From IMG/VR virus record IMGVR_UViG_3300034069_001746: 64,000 bases of DNA. One strand, given 5' to 3'. Positions 3,817-16,900 of this stretch are shown here, piece after piece. The DNA comes from a virus. Position 1 is the first letter of the stretch; the number at the start of each line of letters is the position of its first letter. The position numbers and the translations under genes were made by a program. The notes under the pieces were generated by a model that ran no database searches, had not been told where the DNA came from, and was given only the letters and a program-made list of their open reading frames with translations.

Positions 3817-4905
3817 ATGGCCGGTAAACCACAATCTGATATACCAAGGAATCAACGACCAGCTACTCCTTGTCCTAAATGTTCAGGACCGAGAGATAGG
3901 TTGCCTAGTGGTTGGATGAGATGTCCCGAATGTGATCGTACTAAAACCAAAGATTATCACTCTAGAAACAGAGAAAAACATAAAGAGAGGGTAAAAGAGT
4001 ATTATCAAAATAACAAAGAAGTTTACAAGAGAAATGCTCTTAAGAATTACGAAATTATCAAACAACGAAATAGGGATTGGTTAGCTAAAAACAGAGAACA
4101 AGAACGTGCTAGATTAAAGAAGTATGCAGAAGAAAACAAGGAACATGTAGCTCAGCGAAATAAAGAATGGAGAAAGAATAATCCTGACAAAGTAGCTGCA
4201 ATTTATCAAAAGAGAAAAGAGAACGAACATCCTCTTTATGCAACCTGGAGAGGTATTATTGAACGATGCTACAACCCAAATCATCATGCTTTTCCAGATT
4301 GGGGAGGAAGAGGTATTGGTGTGAATGAACGGTGGTGGATCTTTGCTAACTTTGTTGAAGATGTATGGCCGAGACCTTCGATGATGCACACTATCGATCG
4401 TTATCCTGATATGTTTGGAGATTATGGTCCTGACAATTGGCGGTGGGCTACTAAAACAGAGCAAAATAGGAACCGTAAAAATACGCTATACGTTGATTAT
4501 AACGACACGGGAGAAATCATTTCACTTTCTGAAGCGGCAGATAGAGATGGAGTTTCTTATTTATCTGCTAAAAACAAATATAAACTGAAAACATCAAAAA
4601 GGATGCTCACCACCTGGGAAGGTAAGCAAATAAAAGTTGAACAACTTAGTAAAGAAACCGGTATAAATGAGCAGGTACTCTTGCATCGAGCAAGGACAAG
4701 TACTAACGTAGAATACCTGACTTCTAGACATAGAAGTATACAAACTCACGAATACAAAGGGTGGTGGTACACCCTTTTAGAAATAGCTTTCATGGAAAAT
4801 GTCGACGTTAGATCTTTAAGACCTAAGATGTTAAAAGAGAAAAAGAGTCTTAAAGAAGCTTTAATCGCTTGTTTCGAAGAAAATAAAGAAAATAGAGATA
4901 GGTAG
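3817..4905 (+). CDS. free-standing HNH-like (homing) endonuclease
   Basis: N-terminal CxxC..CxxC and charged coiled coil; LYATWRGIIERCYNP...WGGRGI...TIDR...YGPDNWRWAT..EQNRN nuclease core; three C-terminal helical DNA-binding-like repeats. Confidence 0.8.
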   Translation: MAGKPQSDIPRNQRPATPCPKCSGPRDRLPSGWMRCPECDRTKTKDYHSRNREKHKERVKEYYQNNKEVYKRNALKNYEIIKQRNRDWLAKNREQERARLKKYAEENKEHVAQRNKEWRKNNPDKVAAIYQKRKENEHPLYATWRGIIERCYNPNHHAFPDWGGRGIGVNERWWIFANFVEDVWPRPSMMHTIDRYPDMFGDYGPDNWRWATKTEQNRNRKNTLYVDYNDTGEIISLSEAADRDGVSYLSAKNKYKLKTSKRMLTTWEGKQIKVEQLSKETGINEQVLLHRARTSTNVEYLTSRHRSIQTHEYKGWWYTLLEIAFMENVDVRSLRPKMLKEKKSLKEALIACFEENKENRDR

Positions 4906-4941: not shown

Positions 4942-7900
4942 TTACTTAAAGTAGAGATCAACAATTTTACGTCTTAACGCGTCCATATTTCTTTCAGCGA
5001 TTCCGACGTTGAAAGGACTAGCTACGATACGATTTGTAATAGAAGTAGAGCTGAAAAGCATATCGATAGGTATGCCAGATTCTGTATAATGTTGACGCTC
5101 TGCTACATGCGACACTATGCTTTTGCAAGCATTTGCTACAACCAGCTTGTCACCCTCAGACATCCCTAAAGTTTCAGTGATCATGAATTCCAGAATCACT
5201 GTTCCCTCAGCAAAGGTCACTCCCTGGTACCTGGTACCCACAGCAACCCAACCTGGCTTTTCAGGAGGCTTGATATCAGCCGACGTACTTAGAGCTTTGA
5301 AGTTATCCCGCACTTCTTTCTCATAGACCTTTAGGATCGTTTTAAGACTATCTGAGAGCTTATCTCGATCACAAGCATAAAGGATGCGGATCTTACTGAT
5401 CGTGCCTGTATAGTCAGCAGGAGGCGTTTGACGATTGAGCTTCTCCATGATGTCTAGGTTTTCGATGTTAAGCTCCGTGGAACTACCCACTAGATAATCA
5501 TCGGAGATAATACAAAGAGCATCAGGTGTTTCAACATGATCGCCTACTTTCACCATGCTTAAGATCACCGCATCGTTGTTGGTTACCACTTCTCGTTGAT
5601 GACTGGGTGTCATCTTTAAGCGGTCTGCTAAACTACGGGAGATTTCACAAGCATCTTCGTGATTGGAGCTTTTCTCGATTAGGGCAATATTAGCCGTTAT
5701 TCCGTGTTTGAAGGTTACCTGTTTAGTGAGAGGATCAGGAACAAAGAATCCCTGGTTATAGATCAAGATATCTCCTGTTTTAAACTTCTCCCCTACCTTG
5801 ACGTTAGGAACAAGTTTTTGTAGGAGGTAGGACCCGCTGTTCTGTGAGTAAACATCGGCAAAACTATAGCTCTTTACCTCTCCGGCAACCGAGTTATTAA
5901 TTGGCTGGAAGCGTAAGTAGTATAAGGCTGCGGTATGACCCTTGTTAAAGTCTTGAATCAGCGAGTTCTGCTTTCGGGCAACTTCCTTATCCGGAATCGC
6001 ATCAAGGTTTTCGATTCGGAGACGATCAACAATCTTACCATAAGTAGATTTAGTAAGCGCAAAAACACCGCCCATGGGGTAGCTAGCAATATCAGCTTCT
6101 GGTATCAGATAACCAAAGCTGGTATGGGACTGACGATAGCCATCAAGTACTGTATCCAAATAAGGAAGCTTTAAAGGTCTAAGGCTTGTTGCGGCTTTAT
6201 CAGCATAACGAACCTTTAAAACCTTTTGTTTATCATCAATCGATTCAACCACCCCGTTATCGTCAGCAGCCGTAGCAAATACCCCGGTGGAGAGATGGGG
6301 AAGGACAGCATCATACCCCGTGCGTACCGCTAGCGTTTCACCGTGTTCATGATTAGGCACATAGTGCGAAATCTGAATACCCAGATAATTAGCTCGCTTG
6401 CCATCATCAGTGGTGCCTCCTGGCATGACCATGTTCGCCACCGAAAGGATCTGTGGAGGTTCTAGAACTTCCCCTTCCTTGTGAGCTTTAGGCAGACCAT
6501 GGATGTCATCGATATTAGGTGATGCTGATAGATAAGAGGTGATACCCACTTTACCCGAATCAGGAACCGATTCTGAGATGACGCCTAACCCATCCTGAGG
6601 ATAAACAATGTCTTTAGGTGTAAAGCTACGACCCATGCGACCACCACCTCCCGTATAGGTAAAGATGGAGCGCTGCTTCACCTCATGAACAGGATTAATC
6701 ACCTCATTGGGTGATACGGTTGCATCCTGAACAATCTTTTGAAAAACAGCTTCAGGGTTAATTGAAAAGCTTTTCTTGGTGGTAGGATTACCACGGTGAT
6801 TAGCGAGGGCTCGGTAAATCTCGTTGTACACGATTCCATTAAAGCGTTCATACAAACGGAAGCGATGAAGCTTTACCGAGGATGATTCATCGGCATGGTA
6901 ATCGGTTAGCATCACGTTGGCACGAAGGAGAAGTTCATGAAAGGTAATCGGTTCCTTCATTTTCTCCAGCACCGCTTCGGTGATAGGATCCACAAAGAAA
7001 TCAAAAATACCATTCAAGCCCTTTAAGACACCCACGCTCATTCTTTTTTGATTCAAAACGGTGGCGTAAGTTTCGGGTAAATTCATGTCACGCCACGACA
7101 AGCGTCGCAAATCAGCCCAGAGCAAACCACTAGCAATTAGCGAACGAGAAAGAGGGTAACGGTTAAAGACTAATGCTCCATCACTAAATTCAACCAGAAG
7201 ATCATCAACACCAACAACGGCGTCTTTGATTTTGGGGTAAAACACATAGGACAGGTTGATCATGTCCAACACCCGCTTTAGTCCAAAGCGGTAAGACAGA
7301 ATATAGACCAGGGGAATAACCTGGTTGATAACCTTCGCTTGCGTCCATTCAATCGGGGTAGAGGTTAAAGCATCACTACCAATGACATCAAGTAACATTG
7401 CGTGGAAGGATGCCCAGCTATCTTTGACTTTTCCGGCAACAACTTGGGTGATGGTGTTATTGGGAGCCCAGAACAAAACACTCTGATTGGGACCAGTACC
7501 TACAAAGATACCGTAACGATCGCCGGCAAGAGCTAGTTCCTCTTCAAGGGTTCCGCTACCATTCGCTGAGGCACCATTGCCTCCAAAATAAAAGGTGTAA
7601 CCACCAAAACCAATCTCTGTGAATTGACGACCAATAGCGCTATAGTCATACGCCACCTTTTTGGTAGGAAAGGGTGTCTGACCAACCACCGCGTTTAGTT
7701 TACCCTTAGCTTTTAAATCCAAGATCAACCGCGCGGTATCTTGTTCATAGCTGTACCGCTTCGACTGAACCCGCTCCACAATGATCTTGTTGTAATAAGA
7801 CGACAGATTAACGCGTGTCGGTGAGGTTTTACAGATAGGGACATTAGCGATCTGCCGCGTCAACCGGTAGTTGATCCCCGACAGTTTCATGATCCCGTTA

Positions 7901-9588
7901 TCATCCACATCAGGGAGGGTATATTTGATGTGGTGGGTTTTACCATTTAAGTCTGACAGGTGAAAACGGTAGGTGGTGGTACGGTCCATTTCGGTATGGA
8001 CCTTGTCTTCCTCGACCTTGGTAATAAACATCCCGTGCTTGGATAAGGAACTGACCACTTTACCCATGTCGTGATGAAAGGCATGCGTCTGGTAAGCCTT
8101 ATCCATGGCTACCAGCGAAGAACGCTGATACGACTCTTCTGGTGTAGAGGTAATAAAGTCCATGCGCTTAGGGGCAATTGCTTGCAGGGGAATCGGTTGA
8201 ATGAGTTCACCCAACGTACGTCCAGCAACACTTACCTTTAAATGGTTCTCCATTAAGCTGTTGCGCTTGGCTTCTTTCTTGGGTTCAGCGTCTACCGCAG
8301 GAAGCGAGTGATCAACAGTTGCCGTCCGCAATCTTTCTTCAAAGCTTTGTTGAAGAGGTTCATGATTGATGGGGATTTCTTTGTCTGGATGAACATCTTG
8401 CTGGCTTCTTTTAACAACCTCTTGTTCGGTTAGTAAAGACGTTGTAGATTGGTCTTCGACCGGGGAAGCAATAACCGCATCGCTAACGGGAGGTTCTGTG
8501 TTGGTTGTATCGTCAACATAGGTGTCAAATTCATCAGAATCAGGATCCACTCCTTCTGGAAGTTTGGTATGACTCAGGCGTAAGTTCATGATGTGACGAT
8601 AAAACTTCTGATAGAAAGAATCATCCTCGGCAAACTTATCTAAGTCTCCCAGATTGTAAACAATGGCCCGGTCATCTTTTTGGATCACAAAATTGAGGCT
8701 AGCAAAAAGATCCTTGTTAAGCCTCTCCAACAACGAGGTGGAATGAAGCGAGGTAAATAAGGGATCTGTTTTACCCAGTAGCTTCACATCTTCTTTGTAA
8801 GGGTTAACGTTGAGCTCACGGTTCTTTCCGTAAACATACCCCAACAGATGAATCATGGGGTAAATGGACGGGTCATGAGCAAACCCGTTTAAGGTACCGG
8901 TGCTCAGATCTTTAAAGCTACGCTGAAGCAAGGCACGAGCAAAGACGTGATCGCTTTGCGGGAGGAGGATATAATGAGCCTTACCTGGTCCAATCGAAGA
9001 GATCAGATCAAGCATGGTGCGAAAGATAATGTCAAACTTGCGGTAGCTATGAAGCGTACCACTCACCTTGATTTCATGGAGCGGACTATAATCGATCCAG
9101 GTCAACACCCCTGACATTGTTCCAAGGGTTCGGTCGCTCAAGATACGGTGGAACTTACGGTGGGTTTGGAAGAAATGCGAGATCTGCGGGGTTAACGTGT
9201 TAGGACGGTAACTATAGCTTTCTTTAACCCCAAAAGGTCCTGAATGATCAGTCGCGACTGATGTGTTTACCTTCAGATAAATGGGTAGTTTCTCATTCAC
9301 CAGAGGAGGCAGGGTTGGATCAGGTAGTCCTCCATTGGGGGCATCCATTTTGTCCCAACCATTTAAAGAATGGAAGATACACCCTACTGGTAGCTGCATG
9401 GAAGACCATGAGTCAAACTTAGTCGGAGCCTGTGAAGCGCGTCGAACGTTATACGCGGTGTAGAACCGGCCTATTGTCATTCTTTCGAGAGCAATGTGAT
9501 CGTCATTGTCGTCGATAAAGTCAGTCATGGTAAAAACCTTTATTCCAGTCATACAATCAAATTTGCATCCCTGAGGATTTAATAACAA
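4942..9588 (-). CDS. rpoB: virion RNA polymerase beta subunit (phiKZ gp178-like); likely start ATG 9528
   Basis: Beta-type motifs: LSGINYRLTRQIAN, GKVGITSYL, TDDGKRANYLGIQISH, TGYD, SNHEDACEIS, GDKL...KS, DMLFS...NR; synteny with beta' and tail muramidase. Confidence 0.9.
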   Translation of the reverse strand: MLLNPQGCKFDCMTGIKVFTMTDFIDDNDDHIALERMTIGRFYTAYNVRRASQAPTKFDSWSSMQLPVGCIFHSLNGWDKMDAPNGGLPDPTLPPLVNEKLPIYLKVNTSVATDHSGPFGVKESYSYRPNTLTPQISHFFQTHRKFHRILSDRTLGTMSGVLTWIDYSPLHEIKVSGTLHSYRKFDIIFRTMLDLISSIGPGKAHYILLPQSDHVFARALLQRSFKDLSTGTLNGFAHDPSIYPMIHLLGYVYGKNRELNVNPYKEDVKLLGKTDPLFTSLHSTSLLERLNKDLFASLNFVIQKDDRAIVYNLGDLDKFAEDDSFYQKFYRHIMNLRLSHTKLPEGVDPDSDEFDTYVDDTTNTEPPVSDAVIASPVEDQSTTSLLTEQEVVKRSQQDVHPDKEIPINHEPLQQSFEERLRTATVDHSLPAVDAEPKKEAKRNSLMENHLKVSVAGRTLGELIQPIPLQAIAPKRMDFITSTPEESYQRSSLVAMDKAYQTHAFHHDMGKVVSSLSKHGMFITKVEEDKVHTEMDRTTTYRFHLSDLNGKTHHIKYTLPDVDDNGIMKLSGINYRLTRQIANVPICKTSPTRVNLSSYYNKIIVERVQSKRYSYEQDTARLILDLKAKGKLNAVVGQTPFPTKKVAYDYSAIGRQFTEIGFGGYTFYFGGNGASANGSGTLEEELALAGDRYGIFVGTGPNQSVLFWAPNNTITQVVAGKVKDSWASFHAMLLDVIGSDALTSTPIEWTQAKVINQVIPLVYILSYRFGLKRVLDMINLSYVFYPKIKDAVVGVDDLLVEFSDGALVFNRYPLSRSLIASGLLWADLRRLSWRDMNLPETYATVLNQKRMSVGVLKGLNGIFDFFVDPITEAVLEKMKEPITFHELLLRANVMLTDYHADESSSVKLHRFRLYERFNGIVYNEIYRALANHRGNPTTKKSFSINPEAVFQKIVQDATVSPNEVINPVHEVKQRSIFTYTGGGGRMGRSFTPKDIVYPQDGLGVISESVPDSGKVGITSYLSASPNIDDIHGLPKAHKEGEVLEPPQILSVANMVMPGGTTDDGKRANYLGIQISHYVPNHEHGETLAVRTGYDAVLPHLSTGVFATAADDNGVVESIDDKQKVLKVRYADKAATSLRPLKLPYLDTVLDGYRQSHTSFGYLIPEADIASYPMGGVFALTKSTYGKIVDRLRIENLDAIPDKEVARKQNSLIQDFNKGHTAALYYLRFQPINNSVAGEVKSYSFADVYSQNSGSYLLQKLVPNVKVGEKFKTGDILIYNQGFFVPDPLTKQVTFKHGITANIALIEKSSNHEDACEISRSLADRLKMTPSHQREVVTNNDAVILSMVKVGDHVETPDALCIISDDYLVGSSTELNIENLDIMEKLNRQTPPADYTGTISKIRILYACDRDKLSDSLKTILKVYEKEVRDNFKALSTSADIKPPEKPGWVAVGTRYQGVTFAEGTVILEFMITETLGMSEGDKLVVANACKSIVSHVAERQHYTESGIPIDMLFSSTSITNRIVASPFNVGIAERNMDALRRKIVDLYFK

Positions 9589-9624: not shown

Positions 9625-9948
9625 TTAATCATTAGCAGTAAGAGGAGGTAAATATTGATACAAGGTTTTTCCACAAAAGTATCGCCGGTTAACATTTTCT
9701 AACCAGATCCATTTGTCCTCAGTAATACTGTCCCATTTCTCAGCCCTAACAGGATACCAAGCGTACCATAGACTCCAGGTGTTTGTAGGTCCAAATCTCT
9801 TTCGAATCGTTCGGCCGATCCATTCAGGGATTATGATAAAAAGAACAATAAAGGGAAGAAGGAGAAATCCCGCTACGACTGCTGTCGGAACAGCAAGGGG
9901 AGATAATAGCAAGAACACCGTCCGGCCAGAGGGAGACTTCCATTGCAT
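9625..9948 (-). CDS. membrane-anchored hypothetical protein
   Basis: N-terminal hydrophobic segment; WYAWYPV...WIWLE motif. Confidence 0.65.
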   Translation of the reverse strand: MQWKSPSGRTVFLLLSPLAVPTAVVAGFLLLPFIVLFIIIPEWIGRTIRKRFGPTNTWSLWYAWYPVRAEKWDSITEDKWIWLENVNRRYFCGKTLYQYLPPLTAND

Positions 9949-10362
9949 CTAATCCTCCTCTTCATTAAGAATGGTTTCTCCCATGATTCGGTTACCCTCG
10001 TTGTCTTCTTGTACGAGTCGTCGACCACTAGCAAGCGAGCGCCCAGGGCTGTCGGCAGCGCTGTTACCACCCCAATATGCTTCTTTTCCTGGATGCATCG
10101 ATTCAATCATGGCAAAATTGGCAACATCAACAAGATAGTGTTTGTTGCGGGTTTCAATGAACTTCTTCAATCTAGCCCTGATGTCATCTACTGCATTAAA
10201 TTTTAAGGGATAAGCCTTGTCTAGTTTTCCGTATTTGTGATAGCTAACCATCATAGCAGACATCATCTTGATCACAAACTCTGGATCAAACTCACTAATG
10301 GGCACTCCTGCACTAGTGACATATTCACGTAGTGCTTCGAGCGCCTTTTCTTTAGGAGTCAT
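9949..10362 (-). CDS. hypothetical protein, possible all-alpha nucleotide pyrophosphohydrolase-like fold
   Basis: SYHKYG...RLKKF.ET.N..YLVDVANFAMIE pattern; function is inference. Confidence 0.5.
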   Translation of the reverse strand: MTPKEKALEALREYVTSAGVPISEFDPEFVIKMMSAMMVSYHKYGKLDKAYPLKFNAVDDIRARLKKFIETRNKHYLVDVANFAMIESMHPGKEAYWGGNSAADSPGRSLASGRRLVQEDNEGNRIMGETILNEEED

Positions 10363-10365
10363 AAA

Positions 10366-10506
10366 CTATTCCTTTACCAAGCGAGTGCGAAGATCTTCAA
10401 TCATCTTTTGTTCTTTATCTATCACCGTTTGGGTTAAAGGTCTGGTTCTATGAAAAGCCATAGCAGCAATAAGATCAATAAGCTTGTCAAAATCTTCACC
10501 GTTCAT
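10366..10506 (-). CDS. small hypothetical protein (46 aa), not in ORF track
   Basis: Manual translation MNGEDFDKLIDLIAAMAF...LVKE; fills the gap in a minus-strand operon. Confidence 0.55.
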   Translation of the reverse strand: MNGEDFDKLIDLIAAMAFHRTRPLTQTVIDKEQKMIEDLRTRLVKE

Positions 10507-10509
10507 AAA

Positions 10510-10752
10510 TCATGATTCCTTTTCACTAATAAAAGGGTAGACATCTCTACCTAATGATGTTAATTCCCATGGAGGAGTTTTCTGAGCTAGACCTAGATCT
10601 TTTAATTCATTAAAGCCGCGTTTACCTAATCCTCGCCATAGATCACTCATGCGTCGATTATCCCAACTCTTGTAGTTATTGTTAAACAAACCACGAACAG
10701 CTTCTTTTATGTTTTCACCTAAGCTTAAAGCTATTTGTTGAGGATTATCCAT
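10510..10752 (-). CDS. hypothetical protein
   Basis: ORF track; same operon. Confidence 0.55.
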   Translation of the reverse strand: MDNPQQIALSLGENIKEAVRGLFNNNYKSWDNRRMSDLWRGLGKRGFNELKDLGLAQKTPPWELTSLGRDVYPFISEKES

Positions 10753-10803
10753 TGAACAAAATCTTTCAAACGATCATAGAACATTTGTGTAATAAGATGT
10801 AAT

Positions 10804-10837
10804 TATTAGTGAAAGGGGCAATCCCCTTTCACTAATA
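10804..10837 (-). terminator. terminator hairpin directly after vRNAP beta' exon 2
   Basis: TATTAGTGAAAGGGG-CAAT-CCCCTTTCACTAATA, 15-bp stem. Confidence 0.75.
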
Positions 10838-10839
10838 GA

Positions 10840-10998
10840 TCAACGATACGTCAAGGCATGCAAAAACAAATCAACCAGAGCACTACTACCTCCGGTGATA
10901 AACCGTAGATCCGTATTAATAACGCTTTGTTTAGAGTTTAGATACTCCGCACATTCGCGGTTACCATCACTGGACCACACCATTTCTAGTGAGCATTT
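10840..10998 (-). CDS. rpoC: vRNAP beta' subunit exon 2 (52 aa, KCSLEMVWSSDGNRECAEYL...HALTYR)
   Basis: In-frame continuation after splicing at DHDGD; ends in TGA just before the terminator. Confidence 0.85.
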   Translation of the reverse strand, partial: KCSLEMVWSSDGNRECAEYLNSKQSVINTDLRFITGGSSALVDLFLHALTYR

Positions 10999-11397
10999 CC
11001 TTTATGTTCAATGAGGTCGTTAATCTCACCCGTCTCATGCAAGAGACCGCTTGTTATCTCTAACAAGAGCAGACCATATCAAAACCCTCTTGCTTAACAA
11101 GGTTGGGTTCTCTTCATTTCGGAATCACTTGATTCCTACAGGGTGGTAAATCCCTTGGCCGTTGAGCGCATCTCATATCTTTATAAAAAGACGTAGAGAC
11201 TTCGCTGCGGATTGCCCATTGTCCATTCCTTATACTTTTACCGTACCGTAGTAATTAGCTACGCCCCACACTAGTCAGCTTTCGCGGTGTGGTTGGTGAT
11301 AAGGACTTATTGGGTATTCCCGCATTAGAAGAGTTTTCACTTAGTTATCACTAACTAAGCGGACTAACTTTATCATGATTAATTATGCATAAAGAAG
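10999..11397 (-). ncRNA. group I self-splicing intron (IA-like, ORF-less, 399 nt)
   Basis: P AAUGCGGGAA (11317-11326), Q AAUCCGCAGC (11204-11213), R UCAACGGCCA (11156-11165), S GAUAUGGUC (11072-11080); P7 GGCCA/UGGUC; P3 CUCUUC/GAAGAG; P7.2 GGAAUC/GAUUCC; upstream exon ends in U and intron ends in G. Confidence 0.9.
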
Positions 11398-12936
11398 ATC
11401 ACCGTCGTGGTCAGCTCCTAGACCACCTAATTTACTAGTATGCAACATCATGGCATCCATATAAGATGCCCCTTGTACAGGGTATTGTTTTAAAATCATG
11501 GTGGGTTGATCAGGAGCGAGAAGATCAACTAGTTCTACTGTACGTGAAGGAGTGGTGGATACCACATGTAGCTTTGCTATATAACACGATCCTTGCTCAA
11601 TAACAGGGTAGCGTGTCACAATACCGTGTTTACCTTGAGATATCACTTCAGTGATAAGGTAGAACATTTCAATATAGGTGATGGGACGAAGCTTGCTTTT
11701 GTTAACGCTTCTTGGCCAACGAGCTTCTAGATCATCAATACTGCGACAAAGAGCAATGGTGTCACCCTCATCATACACTAGGGATAATGCATAATCTTTT
11801 CCGTCTGTGTCTTTGATTAACACTGGTTTCTTGCGAAGGTCGGTGTTGCGAAAACTGTTAATCAGCTTGTTGATGCCTTCGGACGATGTCCAGTTATCAC
11901 GGGTGGTAGGTGATAAACTGGTGTAAACAAGCTTTCCTGTTTTGGGATCAGATAAAGCCGTGCGAGCAGTGGCTTCTGTTTTGAAAATGGGGTTAGCAAA
12001 GATAGTGTTATAGGCATATTTGAAATAAGGTTGCAGGCCTTTACTAACCTGGTATACCCCTACTTGAACATCATCTGCTTTAAGGAGCTGAGGATCCTCA
12101 GGCGATGCTGCCATATACGGAGCCGCTGTGATGACGTTGCGCGTCCCCATGGCAATCTTACGTCGGGCAAAATTGCCTTGGATAAATCCCCGCTTGCCAT
12201 CTAGGAAGTTTTCAATATATTCAAAGATTTCCTGTGCTTTGGATTGAATCTGATACCGTGCAGAATCGTACAAAGGCGACTGTGTTCCCCTGGGAATTGA
12301 TTTGCTGTAAAGCAGCAATGATGTGTACAGCTTGTTGACATCATCTTGTACCAATCTACCCGAGGAATCATTGGCGATATCACGCAGGCCCGCTGGTTCC
12401 ACTAAATATTTGGTTTGTAGGGCTCGTTCTTTATACTGTTGAATAACCTCGATCCGTTCATCGCGGGTGGAGGAATTAGTGGTGTGAAACGACAAATCAT
12501 GAAAATGGCGTAAAAAGAATAAGTAACCTGTGTTAGCATCAGGTGTTTGTGTTGGGTCACCATGAACACGTTTAAAGTTTTTGGTAACAGGATCAAACAC
12601 AGCATAGGCTGTGCCACTCATGATGTCTTTATAAAGACTACCTAATTGTGTAATAAGCTTAAAGATCTTGGGATTAAAAATAGAGGTGTTAAGATCAATA
12701 TACCCAAAGCGCGTCATGCGCTCTGGAGACCCGACATAACCAAAGATCGATTCAGAATAAAGACCTTCATGATGAAAGAGATTACTAGAAGGCTCCAGCG
12801 TCAAGGGAGAGGTAACAGGAAGAGCTTGATGATCCCTGATGAACTGTTCCACATCCATGATCGCGATGTTAACGGGATCGTAAACAGAACCAATGGTGTT
12901 AGGGGTGAGGCTGGAAAGAGGAACTATACTTGCCAT
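11398..12936 (-). CDS. rpoC: virion RNA polymerase beta' subunit (phiKZ gp180-like), exon 1
   Basis: EGLYSESIFG...RFGYIDL, RGFIQGNFARRKI, VTRYPV and catalytic GADHDGD; spliced product 565 aa. Confidence 0.9.
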
Positions 12937-13972: not shown

Positions 13973-16900
13973 ATGGCCGATGATAACAATACCAATCCAT
14001 CGACCCTGGATCAAGGGGTCGATCATCATGATCAAGCCCCCATTATTAATGGTGAAAAATACGAAAAGCAAGCGGGTAATCTAGTTGCTAAAGAACCCAA
14101 CACTACCGCCGACACGAAGGTTTCCGATGCTAAGTCGTGGACCATGGCTGAGATCGACCGAGTTGTATCATCGGAGATTATTCCTGACACCAGGCAGCGT
14201 TTAAATCAATTTGGTGTGGGTCTTACTCGGCGTAATGATTTTCGCCTAAAAGATCTAGCCCGCCGGGTCGAGCGTCAGACTAGGCAGGACTTTGCTGGCG
14301 ATCTTAAATCAGGACCGGTTAGCCGTCGCTTGAGGAATTACGACATCAAGTCGTATACCATGCGAATGATCACGGCTAATGCCGCTCTTGGTTCACTTCA
14401 ATTCCAAAAGAGCCAGCACCTGCCTTATATGCGCAAGTCGCTGTCGTTGGCGTACGAAAAAGTTAACCTCCTGAAAAAGGTGGTGAGCGGGATTGGCGGT
14501 CTCCAGCGTCATGTGGTTGCAAAGCTGGAAGCCATTAAGCTTAACACAGCCGCTGTAGCACCGAGTAAAGAATCTCGTTTTGCCAAAATCAGAAAAGCGA
14601 TCAAAGACAAGATCGATGATCGCATTGCTACAAACTTTTCCGGCGTTATCTTAGCTGGGTATGATGAGAAATACAAAAAATACGTCTCTCCTACGCTGAG
14701 TCGTCTTCATGCTAAAATGGCGCAAAAAGATCGTCATGGCGGTCTCAATGGTGGCGTGGGTGTTCTGTCTCGTAAACTAAATGATCTGCGTCATTCAGTG
14801 GCAAAGGCAGGCGATCAAGGCGGTAAAGTTCCGGCTAGCTTTAATAAGCTTGCTTCAACAATTTTGTCAGGGGCTGTTAAGGCAACACAGCGAGTTCGCT
14901 TACCGCAAGGACTGTCGCAGCTTGCAGCTAAACCCCTTAGTTCAGCGACAGGTCTTTTAGCTAAAGTACAACCTTTTGAGACCCCGGGTTTTAAACCCAC
15001 AACTCCTATTCCTCCAGTCGAAAAAGCTATTGATCAGCTAACGGGTCAAGGTCATGAAAACTCCTCTCTGTTACGTTTTTTAAAGCGTGATAAAAAGGAA
15101 GGCGATGTTTATCGCAAAACTCTTCTTGATCATGTTAAAGCCATTCGATATCAATTGGTTCCTGGTAAACACACGGTTGCTGGTAGAGGAAAGGTAATCA
15201 AAACAACCAAGGCTCTTGGTTCCTTAAGTCTTCAACAACATTTACCTCCGGTTCCTATTCCTACTCCATCACTACGAGGAAAACCTCATGTCGTGATCCA
15301 TAGTCCAGCGCCTCATCACGACGACATTCATCACCCTAAACCTTCTGTTCTTACCACCTTGTTTGGTAAGCTGTCTGACAAGATTGCCAAAATTGATAAG
15401 TCATTAATGGGTGATCGTAAAGCTAAAGCGTTGTTTGACAAAGCGCAGGCTAAACAGAAAGCTTTAATGGACAAATTGGCTGCTCGGGCTAAAGTCCGTA
15501 AAGGGTCGTATGAAGATCTTGAGGAACAACGCCGTAAAGGCAGAGGATTTATTCCTTGGGGTAAAATGGGTAAGTTTGGTTTTCTAGGCGGTGCTGCGTC
15601 AGAAGCAGAGATGGGGGGTCATCCTCACCTTGATGACCCTGATAATCATCCTGTGGATAGTACCGGTATTCCCAGTATTGCCGCAATGGGTTTGATGGGT
15701 CTGGCCGCTACTGGGAAATCACTGGCTCGTTTTGGGTGGAAAGGAGCAAAACTTGCTAGCAGATATGGCTGGCGCGCGGGTAAAAAGATTGTTCCTGCAG
15801 CGGCTCGTACGGGAGCAAAGGGTGCAGGTATTCTTGGTCGCTTTGGGCTGCGTGAAATCAAGGGAGTTGCAGGTCTTGGTGCACGCGGTCTTGCTGCAAC
15901 TGGTGCAGCATCGGCGGGCGGTGTTGCTCGGCTTTTGGGCAAAACAGTTAAAGGTATTCCTCTGTTGGGGCTTGGTGCTGAAAGCATTGATTACCTCACC
16001 GGGCAGCGTGTTCTTAACTGGCGCAATCTTGCTAAATCAGGTATTGCTCTTGGTGGTGGTGCACTGGGTGGATTAGCAGGTGGTCTTGCTACGGCTGGGA
16101 TGGGAGGTGAGTTTGTTGGAGGTATTGGTGGCTATGCAGCTGGTACTAAGCTGGGTAATACTCTTTTAGGCGATGATGCAACAACCAATAAAACCGCTCC
16201 TCAAGACCCAAGAGCGAAAAAAGAAGATTCTTTATCGGATCGCTTTTTCAAGCTACTCAACACCCGACCTGATTTTCTTAAAAAGAAATCACTGGCTCAA
16301 CGACTACGTGATACCGTTAGCACTGGTTCTACTGATCCTAATCGATCAGTGCCTATCCTTAAGGCAGGACAAGCGCTGCGTTATGGATTAACGGCACCTG
16401 GAATGAAATATGGGTTCCAGAAAGCGTTCTACGGTGACCGTTATTCCAATGGCGATTATGCCGCTGGTAGCAGTTTAGCTAGTCACCTCAATCCAACCAA
16501 TTTCTCCATTGGATCAAGTACTGGTATTTTGGGATGGACTGCTTCAACGGGAAGAGCTGATAATCCCACCACACCGTTTTATGCCTATGTGACATTAGTG
16601 CTCGACGCTTATGGGGTAAAGAATCGTTCGCTCTATGCCTATCTTCATTCCCTAGAACTCTCCCAAGAAAAGATCAATTCCGGTAAATCCAAACCGTTTG
16701 ATGATAGTGACATGACCTACATGTCTGGTCGTTTTGGTTTGGATGGGAAAAACAAGGATGCGGTTAATTACTTCAAAATGTGGTATAAACGCCGCTTTTT
16801 GCCAGCTTTAGCCTTAATCACTAAGGTTACCAAAGCGCACCGATTAACCCTAAGCTCGGTGTCAGGGGCTGATGACAAAGCAATGGCGTCGCTTAATGGT

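Follow-up and report, generated by a model that had tools for sequence, protein, structure and literature searches.

A polymerase subunit that appears to stop four codons after its catalytic motif poses the question of where the rest of it is encoded. In the window, by which the whole 64,000-nucleotide stretch of viral DNA analysed here is meant, the annotated ORF of the virion RNA polymerase (vRNAP) beta'-N gene (11383-12936, minus strand, 517 codons) ends GADHDGD-LLYA-stop, as the original prediction had described. The gene for this catalytic vRNAP subunit of a phiKZ-like giant phage is interrupted directly after the metal-binding motif by a group I intron without an ORF (Table 1), and the evidence for its borders, its ribozyme core and its relationship to introns in other phages is set out below.

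Host gene and borders of the interruption

Exon 1 matched 310 chimallivirus-type phage records by tblastn, all at 37% identity or less, with virion RNA polymerase beta/beta' (phiKZ gp180 family) as the usual annotation. None of 50,697 phage records was matched when the region was searched by megablast and, since the relatives of the host gene among sequenced phages are only distant, the source is taken to be an undescribed phiKZ-like phage. Membership of the gp180 family is indicated by homology, by the DxDGD motif and by a position between a gp181-like lysin and the beta gene, and the order lysin, beta'-N, beta is also found in phiKZ, DT01, RAY and sm033. A 1548-aa ORF downstream of the beta'-N gene is matched by the PHROG 'RNA polymerase beta subunit'. 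No interruption is present in the window's beta gene (4942-9588).

Table 1. Coordinates of the intron, its exons and its structural elements in the window
Feature	Coordinates	Strand	Description and basis
Group I intron	10999-11397	-	399 nt, no ORF, 42% G+C; Rfam RF00028 and exact indel against L006
Exon 1, virion RNAP beta'-N gene	11398-12936	-	513 codons, ends ...LGADHDGD, last codon GAU; ORF list
Exon 2	10840-10998	-	52 codons (10843-10998; KCSLEMVW...LTYR) plus stop (10840-10842); gap-free alignment to homolog C-termini
Internal guide sequence GUCCG	11360-11364	-	directly 5' of P2; homologous in position to the UAAGUCC of the other three introns (phiKZ, Goslar, Yong MS31)
P1 extension hairpin CUUUAU(G)CAU / AUGAUAAAG	11368-11394	-	27 nt; fold of the 5' segment; lies where phiKZ, Goslar and Yong MS31 have an HNH gene
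P2	11340-11359	-	8 bp, GUGA tetraloop; kept through two-sided changes in the four-intron alignment
P7 5' strand GGCCA	11156-11160	-	pairs with UGGUC at 11072-11076
P7.1 and P7.2	11121-11154	-	peripheral helices of a kind typical for phage introns of subgroup IA; form an insertion in the Rfam alignment; 21 nt identical to the Goslar intron
P9, P9.1, P9.2 (loop AUUAACGAC), tail UGAACAUAAAGG, terminal G 10999	10999-11067	-	tail and L9.2 loop conserved with phiKZ; P9.2 stem covaries
15-bp hairpin directly past the exon 2 stop	10804-10837	-	-23.6 kcal/mol, z -7.1

The borders were fixed by comparison with L006, an IMG/VR contig (3300049988_000124; 73% protein identity) in which the gene is uninterrupted and reads ...GGDHDGDKCSCEMVW... 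At the DNA level the alignment of the window with L006 contains a single clean 399-nt gap, from 11397 to 10999, and the empty site in L006 is ...GACGGTGAT/AAATGCTCA... (a slash marks the junction here and below), which places the borders at U11398/C11397 and G10999/A10998, exact to the base. A U therefore stands just before the 5' splice site and the last base of the intron is a G. The gene is also uninterrupted in two further metagenomic relatives, L013 and L014, neither of which gave a match when scanned against Rfam, and the protein of uninterrupted relatives reads DHDGDKCSCEMVW and DHDGDKVSCEYVW across the junction. The presence of the intron is thus sporadic, in that it occupies the window gene and is absent from relatives at 76% (L013), 73% (L006) and 45% (L014) identity. 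Its removal gives a reading frame that is colinear with the uninterrupted homologs.

Other splice sites were considered and rejected. Rfam's own alignment of P1 would put the 5' splice site after U11385, with non-standard pairs, the addition of LLYA and a frame shifted against the intron-less alleles. A hand-compiled list of alternative in-frame pairs (U11396/G11000, U11395/G10999 and U11393/G10994) was discarded because each adds or removes residues relative to those alleles, the relatives having DHDGD-K-C/V-S and no extra residue.

The predicted spliced product is 565 aa long, with the exons meeting at GAU/AAA and the protein reading DHDGD/KCSLEMVW across the junction. In sm033, DT01 and RAY, 51-61 codons follow DxDGD, and the 565-aa product aligns gap-free to these tails. 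Exon 2 is identical to L006 at 38 of 52 residues (73%, equal to exon 1), and its codon differences from L006 are synonymous in 22 cases and non-synonymous in 14; the identity at the level of exon 1 and the mostly synonymous differences therefore indicate that the exon 2 frame is translated. This frame is under purifying selection, including the five codons upstream of its internal ATG.

The original prediction had set the junction at U11398 and omega-G 10999, had joined DHDGD to KCSLEMVW in a 565-aa protein with a 52-aa exon 2, and would have been overturned by homologs lacking a C-terminal segment that matches this exon. The 399-nt indel reproduces the junction exactly, the joined protein sequence is encoded by uninterrupted relatives, and every homolog examined has a tail of 51-61 aa that aligns without gaps, as does exon 2 itself with the homolog C-termini. 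Its further statement that exon 2 ends just before a terminator stands only in part: a strong hairpin is found at that place, but not a canonical intrinsic terminator, as the U-tract is missing and the terminator scan made no call there. The hairpin is possibly a 3'-end or stability element. Beyond it, four small ORFs (80, 46, 137 and 107 aa; 9625-10752, minus strand), none with a PHROG or Pfam match, occupy the 1.25 kb that separate exon 2 from the beta gene; the spacing of beta'-N and beta is about 10 nt or an overlap in sm033, DT01 and RAY, and 400 nt in L006.

Ribozyme architecture

A scan of the whole 64-kb window against Rfam returned one match only, to the group I intron family RF00028 at 11050-11394 on the minus strand, which covers model positions 1-253 of 253 with 70.1 bits (E 9.8e-16) against a gathering cut-off of 50 bits. 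The elements follow one another in the alignment as P2, P3, P4, P5 (enlarged by 86 inserted nt), P6, the R-element region, the P7.1/P7.2 block, P3', P8, the S element and P9, while P9.1, P9.2 and the tail fall downstream of the match. The class of the intron and the pairings that had been named from the letters alone, namely P2, P3, P7 (GGCCA/UGGUC), P7.1/P7.2, P8 and P9, were all recovered, P3 as CUCUUC/GAAGAG, and P4, P6, P9.1 and P9.2 were located in addition; the core helices P3-P8, with the P3/P7 pseudoknot and the G-binding P7, are all present. Equally, the intron proved to be without an ORF, as had been proposed: each of the three sense-strand frames is broken by stops and none contains an ORF of at least 30 aa, so that the homing-endonuclease gene expected of a mobile intron is absent from within it.

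Four introns in the same gene, those of the window, phiKZ, Goslar and Yong MS31, were folded together with RNAalifold. The consensus holds 50 pairs, of which 24 are kept through two-sided changes, one of them a P7 pair of the window; with four sequences this covariation is qualitative only, but it argues that the window ribozyme is maintained. The window P7 differs from that of the family, GACUA/UAGUC, at two pairs, one altered in both bases (U-A to C-G) and the other in a single base (A-U to G-U), and it retains the terminal G-C pair. The 3' tail UGAACAUAAAGG is homologous to UGAACAUAACG/ in phiKZ.

The same RNAalifold consensus also pairs GUC of the guide sequence (11362-11364) with GAC (11014-11016) of the L9.2 loop in the four introns (alignment A2 columns 4-6 / 493-495). 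This modelled pairing may reflect a tertiary contact or compete with P1, or it may have arisen by chance.

Predicted splicing and competing explanations

Taken together, the comparisons make it probable, at roughly 90%, that the window holds a complete ORF-less group I intron of phage type, with P7.1/P7.2 and P9.1/P9.2, which is homologous to introns bearing HNH genes yet offset from them in position. In the proposed reaction an external guanosine would attack after U11398, itself held in P1 by the guide GUCCG; the freed exon would then attack after the terminal G10999 and the exons would be joined as GAU/AAA. The spliced mRNA would yield the 565-aa subunit, and unspliced RNA a 517-aa protein without the conserved 52-residue tail.

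P1 is a weak part of the structure. U11398 is present, and G11364, at a guide position conserved with Yong MS31, is its proposed wobble partner, but the pairing of guide and exon in the window (CGG[UG]AU / GUCCG) is interrupted and needs a 2-nt bulge, and the P1 segment does not fold better than shuffled sequences (z -0.3 to -1.0). By comparison, the guide GUCCGC of Yong MS31 pairs perfectly with its own exon end GCGGAU. P10 with the 3' exon, inspected by eye, amounts to 2 bp at most.

This weakness of P1 could mean that the intron has decayed and does not splice, in which case the gene would make a 517-aa protein (...DHDGDLLYA) and, from the ATG at 10983, a 47-aa peptide, the two assembling in trans in the manner of phiKZ-family polymerase subunits. 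The ATG does sit five codons into exon 2, the second exon of several relatives is annotated as a CDS of its own in public records, and a long-read transcriptome found no spliced reads for the predicted phiKZ introns under its conditions (PMC10914365). However, a useless intron is unlikely to remain intact, and here the core scores well over the Rfam cut-off and has pairs kept by compensatory changes; furthermore, KCSLE, upstream of the ATG, is conserved with uninterrupted relatives, and the only AGGA-like stretch, read by eye, lies about 14 nt upstream of the ATG, which is far for a ribosome-binding site. Little credence is given to a decayed intron for these reasons. Less still is given to an assembly artefact or chimeric join that placed unrelated intron sequence in the gene, which is practically dismissed: the window does come from an uncultivated source, but the inserted sequence has base-exact borders, a U before it and a G as its last base, and its removal restores the reading frame exactly; its G+C (42%, against 44% for the exon) is taken as equal, and its homologs are introns that other phages have in this gene.

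The interrupted, weak P1 and the almost absent P10 may instead belong to a true intron that does not splice on its own, the weak P1 requiring a phage or host protein or active translation, so that splicing may be conditional and may limit the amount of virion polymerase produced late in infection. Sandegren and Sjoberg are said to have found in 2007 that, in vivo, the splicing of T4 introns is dependent on the upstream exon being translated, which is counted in favour of such a dependence, and the lack of spliced phiKZ reads in one study would fit conditional splicing (PMC10914365). Against it, Goslar has the identical exon heptamer and guide, so the P1 geometry is not peculiar to the window, and no candidate cofactor was identified. 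A need for outside help is considered rather unlikely, and it would refine the preferred explanation, a complete ribozyme that joins the two exons, instead of replacing it.

Homologous introns and the choice of insertion site

A 'distant' blastn with the intron found short core matches only, in Goslar, where the annotated feature Intron_gpI was hit, in the Bacillus phages BpSp and Mater, and in Staphylococcus phage SEP9. The introns that the window, phiKZ, Goslar and Yong MS31 have in this gene possess in common the UAAGUCC... guide that immediately precedes P2, the order of their helices, the L9.2 loop and the 3' tail; the Rfam ribozyme scores are 92.2 bits for phiKZ and 69.9 bits for Yong MS31. 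The other three differ from that of the window in two respects. Their P1 loop, the stretch from the 5' splice site to the guide, carries an HNH gene (HNH_3), and they are inserted after the first Asp codon of the motif (GAU/UUC GAC GGN GAY), whereas the window intron follows the third Asp codon, 12 nt downstream.

Because the homologous introns carry an endonuclease gene in the P1 loop, the window intron most likely lost such a gene or never gained one. A neighbouring 362-aa ORF (3817-4905, plus strand, convergent with the beta gene), which has no Pfam family at E <=0.01, is not supported as the missing endonuclease, as it shows no BLASTP similarity to phiKZ gp179 or Goslar gp230.

The offset may be connected with the guide. 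The 5' flank CGGUGAU is identical in the window and in Goslar, and in Goslar-type genes this heptamer occurs at both the first and the third Asp; GACGGUGAU of the window is identical to what Goslar's own gene has at the third Asp. The window gene lacks the first copy and has GCUGAC at that place; because this ends in C, the first-Asp position of the window could not serve as a 5' splice site. The window retains the guide GUCCGC but must pair it with CGG[UG]AU. The intron may thus have originated in the lineage of the first-Asp site and have moved to the neighbouring copy of its RNA target, for which reverse splicing would be the simplest route, reaching the third-Asp site because the guide target CGGUGAU is present there. 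More broadly, the Asp-motif segment of beta'-N in chimalliviruses might be a hot spot in which a single intron lineage moves between neighbouring sites by guide-directed reverse splicing, a tentative proposal that is thought possible but on balance doubtful; four sequences are the basis for the 12-nt hop as well as for the endonuclease loss. If it were true, the intron would have spread without an endonuclease, its site chosen by RNA and not by a nuclease. The conserved guide, the repeated target heptamer and the 12-nt shift make up a small, clean test case for a change of site by reverse splicing.

The Asp motif is occupied at three, possibly four, different points in the gp180 gene family. 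In the EL-like phage GXNNA8, exon 1 ends DSDHD and exon 2 starts GDQLSS, a site after the second Asp, and the interruption holds an HNH gene and a sub-threshold Rfam match of 46.7 bits. In Aeromonas phage PS1, exon 1 ends GGDFDG and is followed, after about 256 nt in which Rfam found no match, by DQLSANS. In PDCC-1 the gene is interrupted after GGD, with an Rfam match of 38.7 bits; a micro-exon encoding xDG was sought there and not found. The third-Asp site of the window was not seen in the few other gp180 homologs examined.

It had also been anticipated that annotation pipelines would report a truncated beta', and public records bear this out. The catalytic virion polymerase subunit will appear truncated unless the exons are joined, and the same error is present in the records of phiKZ, where gp180 ends ...LGAD, and of Yong MS31, PDCC-1, GXNNA8 and PS1, in which exon 2 is a separate small CDS.

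In the phiKZ reference record (L005 2765/2766, 4205/4206), gp180 is annotated as far as ...LGAD, and the exon for FDGDTVSF... (about 60 codons) is unannotated, as a result of which the catalytic motif is missing from the deposited protein.

That RNAP genes of the phiKZ family can be split by introns, which the original prediction had treated as established, is documented in the literature (PMC11512511, PMC10914365). In these two papers, which cite Mesyanzhinov 2002 and Ceyssens 2014, an intron is predicted at phiKZ gp180/gp179, and PMC11512511, with the same citations, lists phiKZ gp180 among the intron-containing genes. The documented introns are those of phiKZ gp55/56, gp71-73 and gp180/179 and of 201phi2-1 gp273/274 (PMC11512511). 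Introns in phiKZ-family polymerase genes, including at the Asp motif, are therefore already known and no concept is changed by that of the window; what is new is the phage, the ORF-less member and the insertion point.

Beyond the phiKZ family, an architectural parallel is provided by the subgroup IA introns of T4 td, nrdB and nrdD (sunY) and those of Twort type, which likewise have P7.1/P7.2 and P9.1/P9.2 extensions and occupy a conserved active-site codon of an essential enzyme. Their host genes are different, and no sequence similarity between them and the window intron was found beyond the core; the likeness is one of architecture.

The PhiPA3 gp210 intron resembles that of the window in being a group I intron in a chimallivirus virion RNA polymerase gene, at catalytic Asp residues, and it was shown to act in competition between phages (Birkholz et al. 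2024, PMC11620839). Unlike that of the window, it interrupts not beta' but the beta gene (gp211/209, the homolog of phiKZ gp178), and its effect depends on its own HNH endonuclease, which the window intron does not have (PMC11620839). An IMG/VR relative of Goslar, L008 (3300045988_173921), contains two group I introns, at 10628-10994 and 14446-14878, one of them in the beta'-N gene, as in Goslar, and the second (54 bits) in the beta gene directly after ...AADRDD. The site of this second intron looks like the PhiPA3 gp210 insertion site and may be equivalent to it.

The closest counterparts remain those in beta'-N itself. The phiKZ gp180/gp179 intron is found in the same gene, at the same catalytic motif and in the same gene order (gp181-like lysin, beta'-N, beta), and has, like that of the window, a GUCC guide immediately upstream of P2, the L9.2 loop AUUAACGAC and the 3' tail UGAACAUAA-G; at the aligned positions of the core the two are about 60% identical. 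It differs in being inserted after the first Asp (GAU/UUC GAC GGG GAC) and in carrying the gene of a 357-aa HNH endonuclease, gp179 (Pfam HNH_3), so that the phiKZ layout runs PHIKZ180, HNH gene PHIKZ179, ribozyme, unannotated exon 2 and PHIKZ178. Yong MS31, a Vibrio phage, has the phiKZ-type layout with ribozyme and HNH gene, again at the first-Asp site. Goslar Intron_gpI (Goslar_00229), which its public record already labels as a group I intron, lies in the same gene and shares the 5' exon heptamer CGGUGAU, the guide GUCCG and 21 identical nt in P7.1, but its site follows the first Asp codon and it holds a 490-aa HNH/NUMOD1 gene (Goslar_00230, 'similar to phiKZ ORF179'), and its CDS is not joined in the record. 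To these introns, which cluster at active-site codons in the RNA polymerase genes of jumbo phages, the window adds one that is free of an endonuclease and stands at a new point.
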